From the NCBI GenBank assembly GCA_050178385.1, contig JBFXGD010000007.1, positions 1 through 47,270 of the forward strand: DNA of 47,270 bases, in the 5' to 3' direction. Position 1 is the stretch's first letter. Every line of letters starts with the position of its first letter. Made by a program: the position numbers. Of this stretch, positions 12,001 to 24,000 are shown piece by piece. Source of the DNA: Calditrichaceae bacterium (GTDB taxonomy: Bacteria; Calditrichota; Calditrichia; Calditrichales; JBFXGD01).

Positions 12001-15000
12001 ACAGTAATTCTCGACTTAAACGGATTTCAGCTGGATGATGCCAACTCGGTCATTCTCGATTTAAATCCTATTAAAGATAAATGGGCCGCCTGCAACTGGC
12101 ATGTTATCGATATTGACGGTCATGATATGGCTGCCGTTGTTGACGCTCTTAAGGAAGCCAGGACAACGAAAGGTAAACCAAGCGTGATTATTGCCCACAC
12201 TGTAAAAGGAAAAGGAGTTTCCTTTATGGAGAATAACAATAAATTCCATGGTGTGGCGCCCACAGCCGCTGAGCTGGAAACCGCGCTGCAGGAACTTGCG
12301 AATGCAAGAGAACAAATCTGAGTATTTTAACCTTCTGAAAGAACAGGTAATAAAAATGAAAAAAGAATATAATCTCGGGAAAGCAACCCGTCAGGCCTAT
12401 GGCGAATCCCTTGTTGAACTTGGCAAAACAAATGAGAATATTGTCGTCCTTGACGCTGATTTATCAAAATCAACCTATTCAAACAGGTTTCAGGACGCGT
12501 TTCCGAACAGATTTTTCAACATAGGTATCGCCGAGGCCAATATGATCTCAATTGCGGCAGGCCTCGCGGCAGGAGGAAAAATTCCGTTCGCGAGCAGTTT
12601 TGCCACATTTTTAATGAGCAAGGGTTTCGACCAGCTTCGTCAATCCGTTGCATATCCTAATTTCAATGTAAAGATATGCGGATCTCACTCGGGTATCAGT
12701 ATCGGCGAAGACGGGCCTTCGCAGATGGGTATCGAAGATATCGCGCTTGCCTGCGCGTTACCCGGCTTTACTGTTGTTATCCCTGCCGATGAAGTCGCGG
12801 TCAAACAGCTGATGCCTCAGATTTTGAATCACAAAGGTCCTGTTTATATAAGAACCGGCCGGCCGAAGTCTGCTGAAGTGTATAATGATCACTCAAAGCT
12901 GGAACTTGGCAAAGCAAATTTGCTCAGGGATGGCAGTGATATCACCATCGCGGCCATGGGTTTAATGGTCGTTGAAGCCTTAAAGGCGGCCGATGAACTG
13001 GAAGACCTGGGTATTTCCACGCGGGTTGTTGATTTTCATACTGTTAAGCCCATAGATAGAGAAATGGTGGCAAGCTGCGCGAGGGAAACCAAAGCGATCT
13101 TATGTGTCGAGGAACATCTGCTTGACGGCGGCCTTGGAAGCATCGTATCCCGGGTTGTAACTGAAACTGCTCCGGTTAAAATGGGATTCATCGGTTTGGA
13201 ATCATACGCCGAATCCGGCACGCCGGATGAACTTCTGGATCGTTATGGCCTGAGAGCGGTAAATATTGTCGATAAAGCCAAAGAATTGCTTAAATAAAAA
13301 AAGACTGCCCGCGGGCAGTCTTTTTTTTTCTTATAATGCTAAATCCCGTGACAATTTGTTCCTGTATCTCCGCAAGAACTTGATGGTCTTGCAAGCGAAT
13401 TCTCACCGCTGTGGCATTTGTTGCATGTGGTGACCGATTCATTGAGAACACCTTTCACAAATTGGCCATGGAAAACAGGACCGGCGAGTGTCCAGCCACT
13501 CGGGTGAGGATAGCTGGCGCGAGGATAATCTTTATGACAATCCACACAGAATGTTCCCGCCTCCGCGGACAGAATATTTTCTCCATGACATGATTTGCAG
13601 GAAGTTGCTCCTGCTTCAGCCACTTTATTAGAGTGGAAAACTTCGGCCTTGACCACGGCATTATCTCTAATTGTTATTTCGCTCCATCCATCAGGGTGCG
13701 TAACACTGACGACCGGTGAAGTATCTTCGGAACATGCCAGAATTCCGAGAACGAACAATAACATAAATGCGTATCCAAATACTCTCATCTCTCTATTCCT
13801 TTGTTAGTAATATTATGATTTTTTTTATTATTTAAATTTTATATCCAAATAATACTGAATATATAATTAATAGTATCAGTACAATTCCTATTGTAAGAAA
13901 GGTAAATCCCAATACATGAATAAACCGCTCCCTGCGTTTCGATATGTATTCTTTCACAACCATCTTTTTTAATGCGCCGCTTTTCTTAAGTTCTGCATAA
14001 TCTTCGGGACGATCTTTCATATATTCTTCAATGGGAACAAGCCCTGTAAATATTACTTTATCCATCGGGAAGGCTTCGGGTCTCAGATGTGTATTAAAAA
14101 AATGAATCGTAAAAATGAACCCAACGGCCAGCAGCGCCTCATCACTGTGAATAATTGTAGCCACGTTAATCAGCCATCCGGGGAAAAATTTTGTGAAAAA
14201 TTCAGGGAACCAAAGCATCAAGCCCGATAATCCGATCACCGCCACGCCCCAAAAAACCGCGAAATAATCAAATTTTTCCCAGTATGTCCATTTCCCGTAA
14301 TCCGGCCGTTCTCCCTTTCCCAGAAACCATTTAAGAGTTCCCCAGAAATCGGCAGCATCTTTTTTATTGAACATCATGGAATCCCGTCCAAATATAAAAT
14401 CTTTCCATGGCGTCTTGCGGCTGATTTTTCTTTTTATCAACTGGTAGAGATGACTTGTAAAATAACCCGCCGTCAATATGGCCGCAAACCTGTGAATCCA
14501 TCCGGCTGCCTCCACACCGCCGACTAATTTCGACAGGTATCCGGCCCAGGGCATACCCGAAAACTTTAGCATCATCCCGGTTAGCGCGAGCAAAATAAAA
14601 CTGATAATTACAAATATATGTGTGAGCCTCTGTGAAAATTCAAAGCGCCGTATGTAATATCTTGTCTGCGGTTCTTTTTTTTGTTTCTGCCTTTCTCTAA
14701 GATGACGGAAAGAGCGTGGAAGCCACAAAAGCGTATGTATGCCGAAAAAACCGAATACGCTTACAAGCAGGATTGTCATCGCCCAGTATGTATAATAAAG
14801 GATCGGATATTTTACCGGATCATGATGAGTGGCATGCGTCAGATATCCCGTAAATCGCTGATTCGCGTCATCATGACATTTTTGACAAGTATTCACGATA
14901 TGATGCAGCCCGACACTGGAATTCGGATCATTGATACCAAAAATAAGATGTGAATTATGGCAGTCTGAACATTTCGCCGATTTTAGATAACCAAGCTGGT

Positions 15001-21000: not shown

Positions 21001-24000
21001 ACCGCAGGAAACTCCGCCGGTCGTGTCGGTCATAACCGTCCAGCGCTGTATATTATGAGGTGTCGCGTATTTCCATGTCGGTTCCGCAGTAAAATTTGCA
21101 AGCGAAATACTGCCGCCCCAGTTGTCATAGGTATCCGGAACAATCGGAATATGTCTTACCGGAGTAAAATCATATGGCCGGGTGGCGCTTTTAAGATAAT
21201 TTTTACCAATTTTAAAGGTGAGATAAGATGACCCGGTGATACCTTCACCGTTAACATGACAGCCGTTACAATTTTTGTAGGCTTGTGAATGGCAGGTCTG
21301 GCATGATAATTTGGATCCGCTTCCTGACCAATGCTGATTGTGATAACTATTTGAAGTTGCTACGTCAGCATGACAGTCTTCGCACTTAGCGATGATCTGA
21401 GAATCTTCAATATAGCGATAATCATACGGGTTACCGTCGCCATGCATTTCGTGACCGTCATGACAGAACATGCAATCATATCCTTTTGATGAATGGACAT
21501 CCATGAAGATCCCTTTATCACTGTGAGCGCCGGTATATTCTTCTCCAACGCGTGAGCCGTGACATGCGGTGCAGTTGTTTGACTGACTGGGCGTCCTTCT
21601 GAAGGTGTGCCCTGATACCAGTCCGCCATTGACCGATCGCGGTTTACTGATATGGCATTCCCCGCATGTGGCGTGACATTTCGCGCAATCTTTTGTAAAT
21701 CCGGCCACCATTGCGTCATCCGTCCTAAGATCCATTCCGCCGGACCGCACTTCAAATCTCTGGTGGTAGCCTTCCTGTGTAAGGTGCAGACTTGTTTCAA
21801 AACTTGAAACTTGCTGCGAATGGCAGGGACCGCAATAGGTCTCAGCATCTGATAAAGACGGATATGGCACTAAATCGGTATGTGCATCCGTTTTTGTAAA
21901 TTTTTCGGGATTGCCCTTATGACAGGCGGTACACCCTAGATTTCCGTGCGTGGAAGTAAGAAATTCTGCTCTAACAAAAACACGTTCCCATGCCTCAACC
22001 TGAGGCACTTCGCCGCCTCAGCCCTCGCCGGTTTCACCGCCGGTATCGGGAAGAGCATCGGCAACCTTAATCAACAAATCTTTGTCTGTATGACAGCTGA
22101 CACAACTGGTTTCATCTACAGAAGCGAATTTCTTCGTTTCCACAGGATACTTTTCTTCACATGCTGTCATCCATGTGACCGCTAAAACGAAGAGGACAAG
22201 AAGAACAATTTTTCTAACCATGACCTTATCCATTTTTTTGTGTTTATATCATAGTAAGTTTAATCATATCAAAAAACAAACCAGGCTCATTTTCTGAGCC
22301 CAGTTTATATAACATTTAACATCAAGAAAGATCAAACATTCATTCTATGGATTAACTCCGGCTGTTACCGGGTAGTCATGACCGGTTGCTTCGTTAAATG
22401 GAGCCACTCCTGCTCTCGCGGCTGTATTCTTCGTCCACGACATAATGCCATGTTTTAAATTAACAGCATTATATCCAAGAAGATTCAAAGCGGTTGTAGC
22501 GATACCACCGGTATGCCCTGTATAACAATATACAACAACGAGACGAGTCGGATCAATCTTTTTTAAATTATCTTTAGTGGCGATTTCTTTCCAGGGAATA
22601 TTGATTGCGCCCGGGATATGACCAATTGCATAATGGTCAGCGGAACGTACACTTACGATCTGCGGATCATTGCTAGTGTCACCATCATTAATCACTCCAT
22701 GAAGAACATCCGCGTTATAGGTCGCCGACCCTAATGAAGCATAAAGATCCGAAGACGCCAATATAATATCATCAGCATTTGCTGAAGAACTGAATTCAGG
22801 ATTCGCCAGGTCATATGTTGAAGAAGCATTAATAGTCGTTTCCAGTTCATAGTCAAAACTGGTCTCTTCGCTGAACGGCGCGACACCGCCTCTGGCCGCG
22901 TCATCTTTTGTCCAGTCCATTATACCAAACTTGACATTATAAGCGTCATAACCAAGCGCTCGCAAAATAGTAGTTGCAACTGCGCCCGTATGGCCTGTAT
23001 AACAATAAACGGCAATCTTACCACTATTCTGCACAGAAGCGATTCTTGCCTCAAGAGCTGTAAGCTTGTCTGCTTTTGCGATATCTCTCCAGTTAATATT
23101 GATCGCGCCCGGGATATGGCCGATTTCATAATGAGACGCGCTTCTGACGCTGACTATTACGTAATTGTTTGTATCATCACCATCATTAATATTATCATAC
23201 AAAACCTGTGCTGTCACGATAGGTGTAACATCAACATTTACACTCGCGTCCACAATCGGCTGGACTGCATCAAAATCACTAATAACCGTGCTGCTGCCGC
23301 CGTCATCACTGTCACTGGAACAGCCGACAAACATCGCAAACATTAAAGCCATAATGAAATACATTAATCTTTTTACCAACATAATACACCCCTCGCAATT
23401 AAATAGTTAATATTTAAATAATGGAATAAGGCTCTTTCCTATCCCCCCTTGTGAAATAATTATCTTTTGATGATGCAAAGGCTGTGCCAATCAGCGGAGC
23501 CTTAGTTAATGGCGTTAACTAATTGTTTTAGAATATCAAAAAATTGATTTACTAATGCCAATTTGAAACAATCTGATTCACACATTCTCAAGTTCGTTGA
23601 TGAATAAGGGTTTTATAGCAATGAACATCGTCTGAAACATTTTGTTTCATTTTCTCGGTTGGAACAATTTTTGGAACACATATTTGTCCAATCTTTATTA
23701 AATCCTTTCACTTAAATGGCGAATTGGCATGTATTTTTTATTTTCTGTATATTTCAGAACCTATCACTATTTCAAAGCGATTCTAAATGAAGACAATTTT
23801 ATGTTTTGCCGCGCATCCCGACGATCTTGAATTCTCATGTACAGGAACTTTACATCAATTTTTAATAGAGGGGTATGAGGCTGTTTTTGTCATTTTGACC
23901 AATGGAGAAAATGGTTTCAAGGCAAAAAGCGATTCCCGTGAAGAACGCGTTGAAACCAGAAAAAAAGAACAACTTGATGTAGCAAAAAAATTAGGGCTTA

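Follow-up and report, generated by a model that had tools for sequence, protein, structure and literature searches.

The window, that is, the whole stretch of 47,270 nucleotides from a Calditrichaceae bacterium that was analysed here, carries on its minus strand a gene for a lipoprotein cytochrome c with an in-frame TGA, next to it a gene for a tandem-rhodanese lipoprotein, and further genes for an outer-membrane barrel and multihaem cytochromes. Under translation table 11 the lipoprotein cytochrome gene falls into two open reading frames, 22018..22233(-) with 71 amino acids and 20842..22008(-) with 388 amino acids, the latter of which has no leader by itself. Reading TGA as selenocysteine (Sec, U) turns 20842..22221(-) into one product of 459 residues (459 codons plus stop, with an alternative start possible at 22233), in which U68, encoded at 22018..22020(-), is the single recoded position and lies in the sequence ...GETGEG-U-GGEVPQ.... 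Two public DNA runs, contigs of a variant strain included, have the same letters at the position of this UGA. Elsewhere, TGA is the ordinary stop in five of the 25 long frames of the window.

The codon is widely conserved. In 20 of 21 related loci drawn from genome_contigs, GEGUGG is encoded with TGA, the 21st (L021) being frameshifted and unreadable, and all 20 readable loci retain protein conservation in frame across the TGA. The 86 genomes of the window's own phylum yielded 42 matches, 37 of them with exactly one TGA; the remainder comprise one broken copy (TGA plus TAA), one fragment and three uninterrupted genes, which we read as Cys forms (SGGCGG). Another 22 matches came from the 201 genomes of a second phylum (21 with one TGA, one fragment), and TGA is kept in 58 of the 64 genome matches from the two phyla combined. 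Cys was found at the Sec position in L030-L032 and P0006. Of the 120 best database relatives, 118 cover no more than 85% of the query, and the region before the TGA is thus missing from those entries.

A SECIS-like hairpin with an 8-bp stem and a G-U-U loop (21990..22008(-)) begins 9 nt past the UGA, its apical loop lying 18-20 nt from that codon. Covariation counting and RNAalifold analysis of 21 sequences revealed 85.1% paired cells compared with 31-55% in slid controls, changes on both sides in five of the eight pairs, and a covariation score that none of 500 shuffles reached; the single-sequence minimum free energy of the window sequence favours a competing fold. SelA (514 bits), SelB (372 bits), SelD (370 bits, itself encoded with one TGA) and tRNA-Sec (68.9 bits) were all detected above their cut-offs in the window's genome. 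SelA was present in both TGA-form genomes tested and was found in none of three Cys-form genomes (98, 98 and 85% complete). The conserved in-frame UGA, the Cys-form homologues, the covarying hairpin and the Sec machinery, four sequence criteria in all, make 20842-22221(-) one gene and a genuine selenoprotein candidate. The first-pass annotation had likewise merged two adjacent calls through a TGA in GEG-U-GG, followed by a SECIS-like hairpin, in a genome encoding SelA, SelB, SelD(U) and tRNA-Sec, and had described a phylum-spanning family mostly truncated at the Sec codon in databases; all of this is borne out, by counts that are alike in kind though drawn from samples smaller than its 80 loci.

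Haem sites, lipid anchor and the Sec-bearing loop

Ten CxxCH motifs were located in the Sec cytochrome, at residues 40, 97, 130, 179, 186, 217, 250, 280, 307, and 318. An additional C406-x4-C411-H412 motif is invariant in all 49 aligned relatives, most of which have it as CX3CH, so that eleven haem sites are likely and the earlier count of ten has to be corrected. The protein starts with a signal peptide and a ...MTAC lipobox (C21), and by eye the same combination recurs in each of the 19 related loci whose N-terminus is complete. From its sequence, the product of this single gene is a c-type cytochrome that is exported and lipid-anchored and has one Sec and eleven predicted haems. The alignments furthermore show an ExtM-like scaffold into which a flexible, Gly-rich loop carrying the Sec is inserted between haems 1 and 2; in a predicted structure without haems this loop has a pLDDT under 50.

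No second conserved free Cys was found in the cytochrome alignment, and therefore the Cys/Sec pair mechanism of MccSep is not directly transferable. As far as the accessible text of two reports goes (PMC13510729, PMC5877670), Geobacter MccSep is a Sec-containing pentahaem polysulfide reductase encoded beside the rhodanese-like ExtH, the porin ExtI, ExtM, and a cytochrome b module. The eleven haem sites of the Sec cytochrome outnumber by one the ten free His residues invariant among its relatives, a shortfall that an invariant lysine (K384) or an open coordination site could explain equally well. Subfamilies differ in the loop residue, which can be Sec, Cys or His: both Sec and Cys are absent from the loop in 24 of 41 full-length relatives without TGA, suggesting that the scaffold also serves other roles, and at least eight of these 24 carry His (by eye).

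Neighbouring rhodanese and electron-transfer genes

The gene adjoining the Sec cytochrome encodes a 345-aa lipoprotein (22345..23382(-); lipobox ...FVGC) that matches Pfam Rhodanese at 120 bits in two stretches. Both domains keep their catalytic Cys residues, C127 and C286, whose equivalents are invariant in 18 of 18 aligned neighbour rhodaneses. A rhodanese gene lies directly beside the cytochrome gene in 20 of the 21 loci, the exception (L009) being a 2.7-kb contig, and in two representative clusters, P0172 and P0179, the cytochrome is fused to two rhodanese domains. The proposed pairing of the two lipoproteins is thereby firmly supported, and the cluster is larger than first described, since it takes in a barrel, a 12-haem cytochrome and cytochrome c/b fusions too.

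The barrel gene (19574..20770(-)) encodes 398 residues with a signal peptide, about 22 strands and the C-terminal end ...HFIW, and has no match in Pfam or NCBIfam. Its AF2 model (pLDDT 76, 22 strands) returned 413 PDB matches in Foldseek at E<=1e-3, the matches listed being outer-membrane barrels (AlgE and porins, for example). Starting 13 nt after this gene is that of a periplasmic 12-haem cytochrome c (18673..19560(-); 295 aa, 12 CxxCH, signal-peptidase-I type leader) with Pfam Cytochrome_C7/c3 and weak DmsE-family matches. Further along lies a membrane cytochrome with 11 CxxCH and a dihaem cytochrome b domain (Ni_hydr_CYTB), a probable quinol dehydrogenase (16740..18695(-)), followed by a second one with 19 CxxCH and a cytochrome b domain (13832..16630(-)), and a 149-aa lipoprotein cytochrome with three CxxCH, the lipobox ...ILAC and a faint ExtS match of 16 bits (13339..13788(-)).

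Within the flanks examined, the barrel is present in 11 of the 21 loci, the 12-haem cytochrome in ten, a homologue of the 16740..18695 fusion (at least 200 bits) in nine, and the three-haem lipoprotein in seven (L003, L012, L013, L014, L017 and L019 among them; L001 is cut before it). No barrel was found near the cytochrome in L005, L008 and L010 (Thermodesulfobacteriota). On these counts of the barrel, the electron conduit is not universal. L015 and L020, which belong to another phylum, have the cytochrome-rhodanese pair behind two multihaem cytochromes and a barrel of the MtrB/PioB family, all on the same strand, and a distant relative carries a T9SS sorting tail.

Possible function and competing readings

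We put at about one half the probability that the Sec cytochrome acts as terminal reductase of an outer-membrane electron conduit and reduces sulfane sulfur by means of its Sec, with both the substrate and the membrane side being inferred. The two cytochrome c/b fusions would draw electrons from the quinol pool, and the 12-haem periplasmic cytochrome, paired with the 22-strand barrel, would hand them outward, where the Sec cytochrome and the tandem-rhodanese lipoprotein would spend them on cleaving sulfane sulfur. Candidate substrates are polysulfide, elemental sulfur, or a persulfide taken by the rhodanese from thiosulfate. The selenolate may attack an S-S bond in either the substrate or the rhodanese persulfide, after which the Se-S adduct would be reduced via the haem chain and sulfide released. 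Such a molybdenum-free sulfur reductase would most likely reside in the outer membrane or at the cell surface; if so, many uncultured anaerobes probably reduce sulfur compounds without molybdenum. Of the first-pass proposal, the single Sec gene, the phylum-spanning family and the rhodanese link stand, and the haem count, the independence of the scaffold and the extent of the cluster have been revised.

It is possible, though rather unlikely, that both lipoproteins face the periplasm, where soluble MccSep resides (PMC13510729, accessible text), and that the barrel, in keeping with the proposal made for ExtI, is a porin admitting polysulfide or chalcogen oxyanions as substrates rather than the sheath of an electron conduit; the chemistry would be unchanged. 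Substrate channels (AlgE, general porins, the Occ family) are indeed what the barrel matches best in Foldseek, ExtI is porin-like and implicated in selenite/tellurite reduction (PMC5877670, accessible text), and the three Thermodesulfobacteriota loci have no barrel nearby. Against this arrangement speak the tight barrel to 12-haem cytochrome gene pairing, typical of MtrAB-like conduits, the true MtrB/PioB-family barrel beside MtrA-like cytochromes in L015 and L020, and the surface-sorting tail of the distant relative. We see only a slim chance that selenium or tellurium oxyanions are the physiological substrates, to be reduced or detoxified, and that the rhodanese deals with selenium rather than sulfur. 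In NCBIfam, the names of the ExtM and ExtS families refer to a 'selenite/tellurite reduction operon', selenite/tellurite reduction is also what an extI mutant is implicated in (accessible part of PMC5877670), and MccSep accepts selenite as well; nevertheless, MccSep prefers polysulfide sevenfold and has its phenotype in S0 respiration (both from the accessible part of PMC13510729), selenium oxyanions are scarce relative to sulfur in the habitats of the holders (labelled landfill, sediment, aquatic), and so broad a distribution across phyla points to an abundant substrate.

The conduit-type neighbours, the relatives that lack both Sec and Cys at the loop position (some with His there), and the shortfall of one invariant His would also suit a cytochrome that passes electrons to acceptors outside the cell, for example metal oxides or partner cells; Sec would then do no more than ligate or tune one haem, and the link with the rhodanese would be an indirect one. 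This reading is improbable, as a rhodanese with both catalytic Cys residues adjoins or is fused to the cytochrome so regularly, and as costly Sec is retained wherever SelA is present. That the TGA is a true stop separating a monohaem lipoprotein from a ten-haem protein, or reflects a pseudogene or a sequencing error, we regard as extremely improbable: table 11 does yield two frames and L021 is frameshifted, but the downstream frame lacks the signal peptide that export of a c-type cytochrome needs, conservation continues through the TGA, the Cys forms are uninterrupted, the hairpin covaries, the TGA state tracks SelA, and independent DNA runs keep the codon.

Regarding cultured relatives, the accessible text of the genome paper (PMC5317091) describes Caldithrix abyssi as not respiring S0 or thiosulfate with H2 or acetate and as forming sulfide only during peptone fermentation; this physiology counts against the reading as a sulfur reductase only if the strain carries the locus.

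Comparison with known cytochromes

The Sec cytochrome matched none of the curated selenoprotein models, and in NCBIfam it reached only ExtM, with 39.3 bits where the family cut-off is 800. The table in a 2026 review of prokaryotic selenoproteins contains no cytochromes other than ExtKL, the GSU2204 family and the octahaem family, and our literature search found no printed description of a Sec eleven-haem cytochrome family, in line with its having been called uncatalogued. The protein has no similarity to ExtKL, yet its claimed independence of MccSep/ExtKL holds for the Sec site and not for the scaffold, which by sequence is a true remote homologue of the Geobacter lipoprotein cytochrome ExtM (GSU2935 family; NF040943). 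The hhalign alignment (99.45%, E 4e-22, 219 columns) brings the lipobox, haem 1 and haems 2-8 into register, and a second colinear BLAST segment extends to ExtM residue 553; ExtN scores 95.6%. ExtM and ExtN belong to the Geobacter ext operon holding MccSep and are, like the Sec cytochrome, lipoprotein multihaem cytochromes in a rhodanese/porin/Sec-cytochrome cluster. ExtM differs in its 656 residues and 12 CxxCH (459 residues and eleven haem sites here), and lacks the Sec/Cys loop of about 36 residues between haems 1 and 2. We came across no functional work on ExtM; the accessible texts mention GSU2935 only as a downstream gene.

MccSep itself (ExtKL, GSU2937-2936; NF040886) of G. sulfurreducens resembles the Sec cytochrome as an exported multihaem c-type protein with one Sec on a Gly-containing mobile loop, a SECIS-like hairpin after the Sec codon and a gene split by gene callers. 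Its cluster, as far as the accessible sources describe it, likewise includes a rhodanese-like lipoprotein, an outer-membrane barrel, a 12-haem cytochrome and a membrane cytochrome b module. Nevertheless, the proteins share no sequence similarity (BLAST E of at least 0.8 against ExtKL, no NF040886 match), and neither ExtH and the window's rhodanese nor ExtI and its barrel are detectably homologous (hhalign 13% and 0.3%). MccSep is a soluble periplasmic tetramer with five haems, Sec near the C-terminus (U325) and a haem-ligating C239, whereas the Sec cytochrome is a lipoprotein with eleven predicted haems, Sec near the N-terminus (residue 68) and no conserved free Cys for that part. A search for MccSep came up empty in the window's genome, where the best score was 26 bits against 250, and also in five other genomes with the Sec cytochrome.

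Among 48,161 solved chains, the octahaem tetrathionate reductase OTR (TIGR04315; PDB 1sp3) alone reached a Z of at least 5 with the predicted structure (Z 7.7, rmsd 4.4 Å, 219 residues, model residues 128-459), a value within the range that the structure-search tool calls common and a match that leaves the Sec-bearing N-terminal part outside. The active haem of OTR is Lys-ligated. The genome's own OTR aligns with the Sec cytochrome at 96.6% in hhalign over 78 columns covering haems 7-9, and TIGR04315 gave no match to the Sec cytochrome gene at E<=10. OTR is a sulfur-compound-reducing multihaem enzyme, Sec forms of whose family are named in the 2026 review.

At the level of gene content, the cluster resembles the MtrCAB conduit of Shewanella and the Pcc/Ext conduits of Geobacter in its barrel, haem-dense periplasmic cytochrome, lipoprotein multihaem cytochrome and cytochrome b quinol oxidase, the more so in L015 and L020, where the barrel is an MtrB/PioB family member. 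It differs from them in the window's barrel, which is of about 22 strands and unmatched in Pfam, and in the putative outer cytochrome, which carries Sec and is accompanied by a rhodanese. Finally, sulfur-converting cytochromes whose catalytic haems are His/Cys-ligated, such as TsdA, SoxAX and, at haem 2, MccSep, place a chalcogen side chain on the distal face of a haem, according to the accessible sources; with eleven haem sites and ten free His residues, the Sec cytochrome may offer a parallel in a putative Sec-haem contact.

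The read-through gene and its in-frame TGA

Translation with table 11 divides the Sec cytochrome gene, which encodes a predicted lipoprotein multihaem cytochrome c, into two minus-strand ORFs, 22018..22233 (71 aa) and 20842..22008 (388 aa). When the TGA between them is read through, 20842-22221(-) becomes a single frame of 459 residues, in which the sole recoded codon is U68 in GETGEG-U-GGEVPQ. The first-pass annotation had taken the two gene calls as one gene, and both the in-frame TGA and the protein conservation on either side of it bear this out. C-type cytochromes need an export signal; the downstream ORF by itself is devoid of one, and the N-terminus of the joined product carries a signal peptide with the lipobox MTAC at its end. 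The closest public record, from a Calditrichaceae MAG, is 93% identical. The ten CxxCH motifs counted earlier were found again, but the total of ten haems was not upheld, as an additional C406-x4-C411-H412 motif likely brings the number of haem sites to eleven. Across 49 aligned relatives, none of the ten downstream haem motifs varies, nor does C406/C411/H412, and C40/C43/H44 are likewise invariant in the 22 aligned sequences that cover the N-terminus. Rfam also returned a sub-threshold match to the PinT sRNA at the 5' end of the gene (22160-22237(-), E 0.021), which we took as a chance match, its 25.8 bits lying below the gathering score of 60.

We read the TGA at 22018-22020 as a selenocysteine codon, a reading on which four independent lines agree, namely conservation, Cys forms, the hairpin and the machinery. 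The in-frame GEGUGG motif with TGA was recovered in 20 of 21 related loci from genome_contigs, which by record title belong to Calditrichaceae, KSB1, Thermodesulfobacteriota, Gemmatimonadetes and Cytophagia, while the 21st locus (L021) is frameshifted and unreadable and was left out of the motif counts. Among 86 genomes of Calditrichota, the phylum of the window, 39 yielded 42 matches, comprising 37 with exactly one TGA, three uninterrupted genes, one broken gene and one fragment. The TGA form is also carried by a genome of the window's order that is complete in a single contig. In a second phylum, 201 genomes were sampled, of which 20 gave 22 matches; 21 of these have one TGA, and the last is a fragment. 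The conservation of TGA at GEG-x-GG proposed earlier was thus found again in each of these samples. The three uninterrupted genes (L030-L032) carry SGG-C-GG at the Sec position, and a database protein, P0006, carries GEG-C-GG; when the N-terminal part of P0006 served as query in a word-index search, P0006 itself was the only match. A search for SelA was negative in all three Cys-form genomes (98, 98 and 85% complete) and positive in both TGA-form genomes tested, although the three Cys-form genomes are kin, and the pattern counts as one event and not as three.

The machinery reported by the first-pass annotation is present in full in the window's genome, with SelB (372 bits), SelA (514 bits), tRNA-Sec (68.9 bits) and SelD (370 bits) all exceeding their curated cut-offs. 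The SelD gene (G000:C51:8792-9727, L041) itself contains one in-frame TGA and is therefore read as a Sec-form selenophosphate synthetase. Genome-wide recoding of TGA was also considered as an explanation of the open frame and was ruled out, since TGA terminates 5 of the 25 long frames within the window and the genetic code is therefore not globally changed. In the contigs of two public DNA runs, one of them from a variant strain, no other letter was seen at 22018-22020. Run X3 gave no contig over the stretch, and no RNA run is among the public runs in which the stretch occurs, which speaks neither for nor against expression.

Downstream of the UGA, a hairpin at 21990-22008(-) starts 9 nt past the codon and has an 8-bp stem, with invariant G33 and U35 in its apical loop. 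Bacterial SECIS elements are expected to have a small apical loop with a G, 16-37 nt from the UGA (PMC13188914), and the loop distance of 18-20 nt observed here falls within this range. Across 21 sequences, 85.1% of the cells are paired, compared with 31-55% when the partner strand is slid, and changes on both sides were seen in five of the eight pairs; the covariation score was attained by none of 500 shuffles. These figures agree with the earlier claim of a SECIS-like hairpin kept by compensatory changes. In its minimum free energy fold, the window's sequence forms not the hairpin but a rival helix in which the UGA takes part, so that the support for the hairpin is comparative, coming from the alignment rather than from the window sequence alone.

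Family size and relation to known cytochromes

The Sec cytochrome family is common, occurring in 39 of 86 Calditrichota genomes and in 20 of 201 genomes of the second phylum, and with 117 representative clusters matching at E≤1e-30. A word-index search returned 1436 relatives at E≤0.001, and an exhaustive search of 50%-identity representatives returned 660 at E≤0.001, of which 283 reach E≤1e-10 and 117 reach E≤1e-30. As the first-pass annotation had stated, database entries are mostly truncated at the Sec codon: among the best 120 of the 1436 relatives, 118 extend over no more than 85% of the query, starting directly after the TGA. Since the part with haem 1 and the Sec residue is missing from most entries, the enzyme is overlooked in metabolic reconstructions. 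In one entry, P0044 (413 aa), the sequence runs on past the C-terminus of a truncated copy into ...CLTCHLDAELLEAVADSIPSNGGGSGEG and ends there; the added stretch is the beginning of another copy as far as its TGA, which suggests tandem paralogues with no intervening stop. Two Sec-cytochrome copies per genome occur in G025, G073, G089 and G118. We found no printed description of this family in full-text searches of the literature, though survey supplements and data S1/S2 of the MccSep paper could list it under another name. The 2026 review table of selenoproteins has no entry with this motif (PMC13188914), and the word 'cytochrome' is absent from the main texts, to which the comparison was confined, of two selenoproteome surveys (deep-Sep; Peng 2016).

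Which known family the protein might belong to was assessed by profile, sequence and structure comparison. Pfam gave generic cytochrome c7/c3 signals only, and the single NCBIfam match was to the ext product ExtM (NF040943), at 39.3 bits versus a cut-off of 800, which excludes membership of the ExtM equivalog. The GSU2204 family (NF041027) was likewise rejected, with no match even at E≤10. The same holds for MccSep/ExtKL (NF040886), the Sec pentahaem cytochrome of the Geobacter ext operon, whose members score at least 250 bits and have five haem motifs and a C-terminal ...DG-U-P... Sec/Cys site; the Sec cytochrome has eleven motifs, with Sec at residue 68. For a direct comparison, an entire ext cluster was taken from a genome in which ExtKL reaches 619 bits, and BLAST against this ExtKL gave E 0.8 or worse. 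The ExtM of the cluster aligned by hhalign over 219 columns (99.45%, E 4e-22), with the lipobox and haem 1 of ExtM in register and a gap of about 36 residues exactly where the Sec family has ...PLP..GEG-U-GG..LEAWE.... A further colinear segment, seen by BLAST, reaches ExtM residue 553. ExtN aligns as well. The alignment together with the gap leads us to regard the Sec cytochrome as a compact ExtM-like lipoprotein cytochrome with a Sec loop inserted between haems 1 and 2. The independence from MccSep/ExtKL that had been claimed earlier therefore stands with respect to ExtKL itself, to which there is no similarity, but not for the scaffold, which is remotely homologous to ExtM.

The octahaem tetrathionate reductase (OTR) family (TIGR04315) is the other candidate to be weighed. 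Its members score at least 375 bits and have eight haems, and the Sec-cytochrome gene does not appear among its matches at E≤10. A homologue elsewhere in the same genome, at G000:C45:2861-4123 (L025:1393-2817), scores 586 bits; it has a Cys-containing ...KKNLFNNFC... motif and no TGA, and is therefore a second candidate multihaem sulfur-compound reductase of this organism. A local alignment of this homologue with the Sec cytochrome (96.6%) covers haems 7-9. The AF2 model of the Sec cytochrome (pLDDT 74.5, pTM 0.71), in which the Sec loop has a pLDDT below 50, gave nothing at E≤1e-3 in a Foldseek search of the PDB, and a PDB sequence-profile search gave weak cytochrome matches only, at E 0.006 or worse. 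In a fold comparison with 48,161 chains, the sole match at Z≥5 was Shewanella OTR (1sp3_A; Z 7.7, rmsd 4.4 Å over 219 residues, model residues 128-459). We interpret the resemblance of this model to OTR as a remote connection with the catalytic multihaem superfamily rather than as membership. We classify the family as a second family of multihaem selenoproteins, on the ExtM scaffold and in a conduit context.

Rhodanese partner and genes of a probable outer-membrane conduit

The rhodanese gene product is a lipoprotein of two domains, each with an active-site Cys, and both Cys residues are invariant in all 18 of 18 neighbours. Its gene directly adjoins the cytochrome gene in 20 of the 21 loci (3 upstream, 17 downstream), the sole exception being a 2.7-kb contig, so that the linkage proposed by the first-pass annotation holds as direct adjacency. 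Fusions of Sec-family cytochromes to two rhodanese domains were also found in two representative clusters, P0172, which is truncated at the TGA, and P0179. On sequence grounds, the predicted protein is an exported lipoprotein that has eleven haem sites, carries a single Sec on a Gly-rich loop whose position the model does not fix, and is constantly partnered by a rhodanese.

All genes at 13339-23382 lie on the minus strand with short gaps. One of them encodes a 398-aa protein with no family match, which has a signal peptide and a C-terminal ...HFIW; its AF2 model (pLDDT 76) forms about 22 antiparallel strands and has 413 PDB matches at E≤1e-3, those listed being outer-membrane barrels. A 295-aa cytochrome with 12 CxxCH motifs and a signal-peptidase-I leader starts 13 nt after the barrel gene and is followed by two proteins with 11 and 19 CxxCH motifs fused to a dihaem cytochrome b domain, and by a three-haem lipoprotein. 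As in a porin-cytochrome conduit, a barrel gene is thus part of the cluster and a periplasmic multihaem cytochrome gene lies beside it; the Sec cytochrome bears a lipobox and may face outward and dock on the barrel, as the surface lipoprotein of such a conduit would. Of the 21 loci, 11 have the barrel and 10 the 12-haem cytochrome. Two loci of Thermodesulfobacteriota, L015 and L020, encode on a single strand a pair of multihaem cytochromes, a barrel of the MtrB/PioB family, a small ORF, and the Sec cytochrome with its rhodanese. The link of two unrelated barrel types to the cytochrome-rhodanese pair in two phyla is the main reason why we regard the module as the outer terminal part of an electron conduit. 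No barrel was seen near the pair in three other Thermodesulfobacteriota loci (L005, L008, L010), and with the barrel in only 11 of the 21 loci, the conduit barrel is therefore not universal.

Acidic residues follow the lipobox Cys in both lipoproteins, the Sec cytochrome and the rhodanese, which presumably recalls the surface-export signal of Bacteroidota lipoproteins. Two distant relatives, P0262 (1150 aa), with a T9SS C-terminal sorting domain, and P0137 (559 aa), with an N-terminal CarboxypepD_reg domain, hint at surface display in some lineages.

Several further genes were seen around the pair. The small ORF that separates the genes of the MtrB/PioB barrel and the Sec cytochrome (L015:4845-5426, 194 aa; L020:5016-5687, 224 aa) has no Pfam match. 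Sigma-54 activators, which carry PAS or cNMP domains, are encoded next to the pair at L005:92-3252, L005:3908-5266, L008:2843-5620 and L010:4021-5379, a molybdopterin oxidoreductase and a 4Fe-4S protein are encoded upstream of the pair in L005, and genes with an FGE-sulfatase (formylglycine-generating-enzyme-like) domain adjoin it in two Thermodesulfobacteriota loci (L010:2101-2856(-) and L020:8637-9461(+)). In the window, a menaquinone-biosynthesis gene of the VitK2_biosynth family (10583-11419(+)) is located roughly 2 kb away from the cytochrome genes, as would suit a chain fed by quinol, though this may be coincidence. A PrkA/DUF444/SpoVR gene trio at 943-5678(-) is unrelated to the Sec cytochrome.

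Proposed mechanism and comparison with the ext cluster

In the mechanism that we propose, quinol electrons would enter through the cytochrome c/b fusions, go on through the 12-haem cytochrome and the barrel, and arrive at the Sec cytochrome. There, the selenolate would attack a sulfane sulfur, either of polysulfide or S0 directly or of a rhodanese persulfide made from these or from thiosulfate, and the haems would reduce the Se-S adduct to sulfide. Unlike MccSep, the Sec cytochrome has no second conserved free Cys in the alignment of relatives, so the resolving partner would be a rhodanese Cys, or a haem might act directly.

Sec, Cys and His all act as haem ligands, so that Sec68 may ligate or cap one haem, like the Cys in TsdA, SoxAX and MccSep. 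The eleven haem sites are matched by ten invariant non-motif His residues, and there is no conserved Met and one invariant Lys, K384. Among 41 full-length representatives with no TGA, the Sec loop contains a Cys in 17 (mostly xCGG) and none in 24, and at least eight of these 24 have, by eye, a His after a similar Gly turn, e.g. GEG-H, GRGG-H or GYG-H, in a loop comparison that is a loose alignment of sequences and not of coordinates. From the shortfall of one His with no conserved Met, from the change of the loop residue among Sec, Cys and His by subfamily, and from the conduit and fusion context, we surmise, with a probability of roughly one in five, that Sec68 is the distal (sixth) ligand or an immediate distal-pocket residue of one haem, i.e. 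a natural His/selenolate c-type haem that would serve as the catalytic centre of a cell-surface, Mo-free sulfur reductase wired to the quinol pool via an outer-membrane conduit. Many relatives have neither Sec nor Cys, which may speak against the reading as a sulfur reductase. If Sec68 does ligate a haem, this would be new bioinorganic chemistry, and such a surface enzyme could allow Calditrichota, KSB1, Thermodesulfobacteriota and further phyla to respire S0 or polysulfide extracellularly.

For the cultured Caldithrix abyssi, the passages of the genome paper covered here describe the formation of sulfide from S0 or thiosulfate only during peptone fermentation, with no respiration with H2 or acetate, and do not contain the words 'rhodanese' or 'selen-' (PMC5317091). 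MccSep was not found in the window's genome, where the best match reached 26 bits versus a cut-off of 250, nor in five other named holders of the Sec cytochrome family. In the 201-genome sample, MccSep is matched at E≤1e-40 by 23 genomes, of which 22 exceed the family cut-off, and the Sec cytochrome family by 20; the overlap of zero is not significant, the lists having been compared by eye and about 2.3 shared genomes being expected by chance. In light of the six named holders and of the sample with no shared genome, the Sec cytochrome may supply the sulfur-reducing enzyme that is missing from many uncultured anaerobes.

As of 2026, MccSep is the only haem-selenium sulfur reductase characterised. 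In the portions of its description covered, it is a periplasmic tetrameric polysulfide reductase required for S0 respiration, in which haem 2 is ligated by Cys239 and the substrate is attacked by Sec325 on a mobile D-G-U-P loop (PMC13510729). The ext cluster, as set out in the parts of the source covered, encodes the rhodanese-like ExtH, the porin ExtI, ExtJ, the Sec pentahaem ExtKL, the 12-haem ExtM, the 10-haem ExtN, Rieske and cytochrome b proteins and the lipoprotein cytochrome ExtS (PMC5877670). The window cluster has the same list of parts, whereas detectable homology is confined to the cytochrome scaffold, and there to ExtM and not to MccSep; the window rhodanese and ExtH, and the barrel and ExtI, do not align (13% and 0.3%). 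A second haem-selenium family would thus stand next to MccSep, with its Sec on a different, ExtM-like and lipid-anchored scaffold, tied to rhodaneses by adjacency and fusion, and located beside outer-membrane conduits in two phyla.
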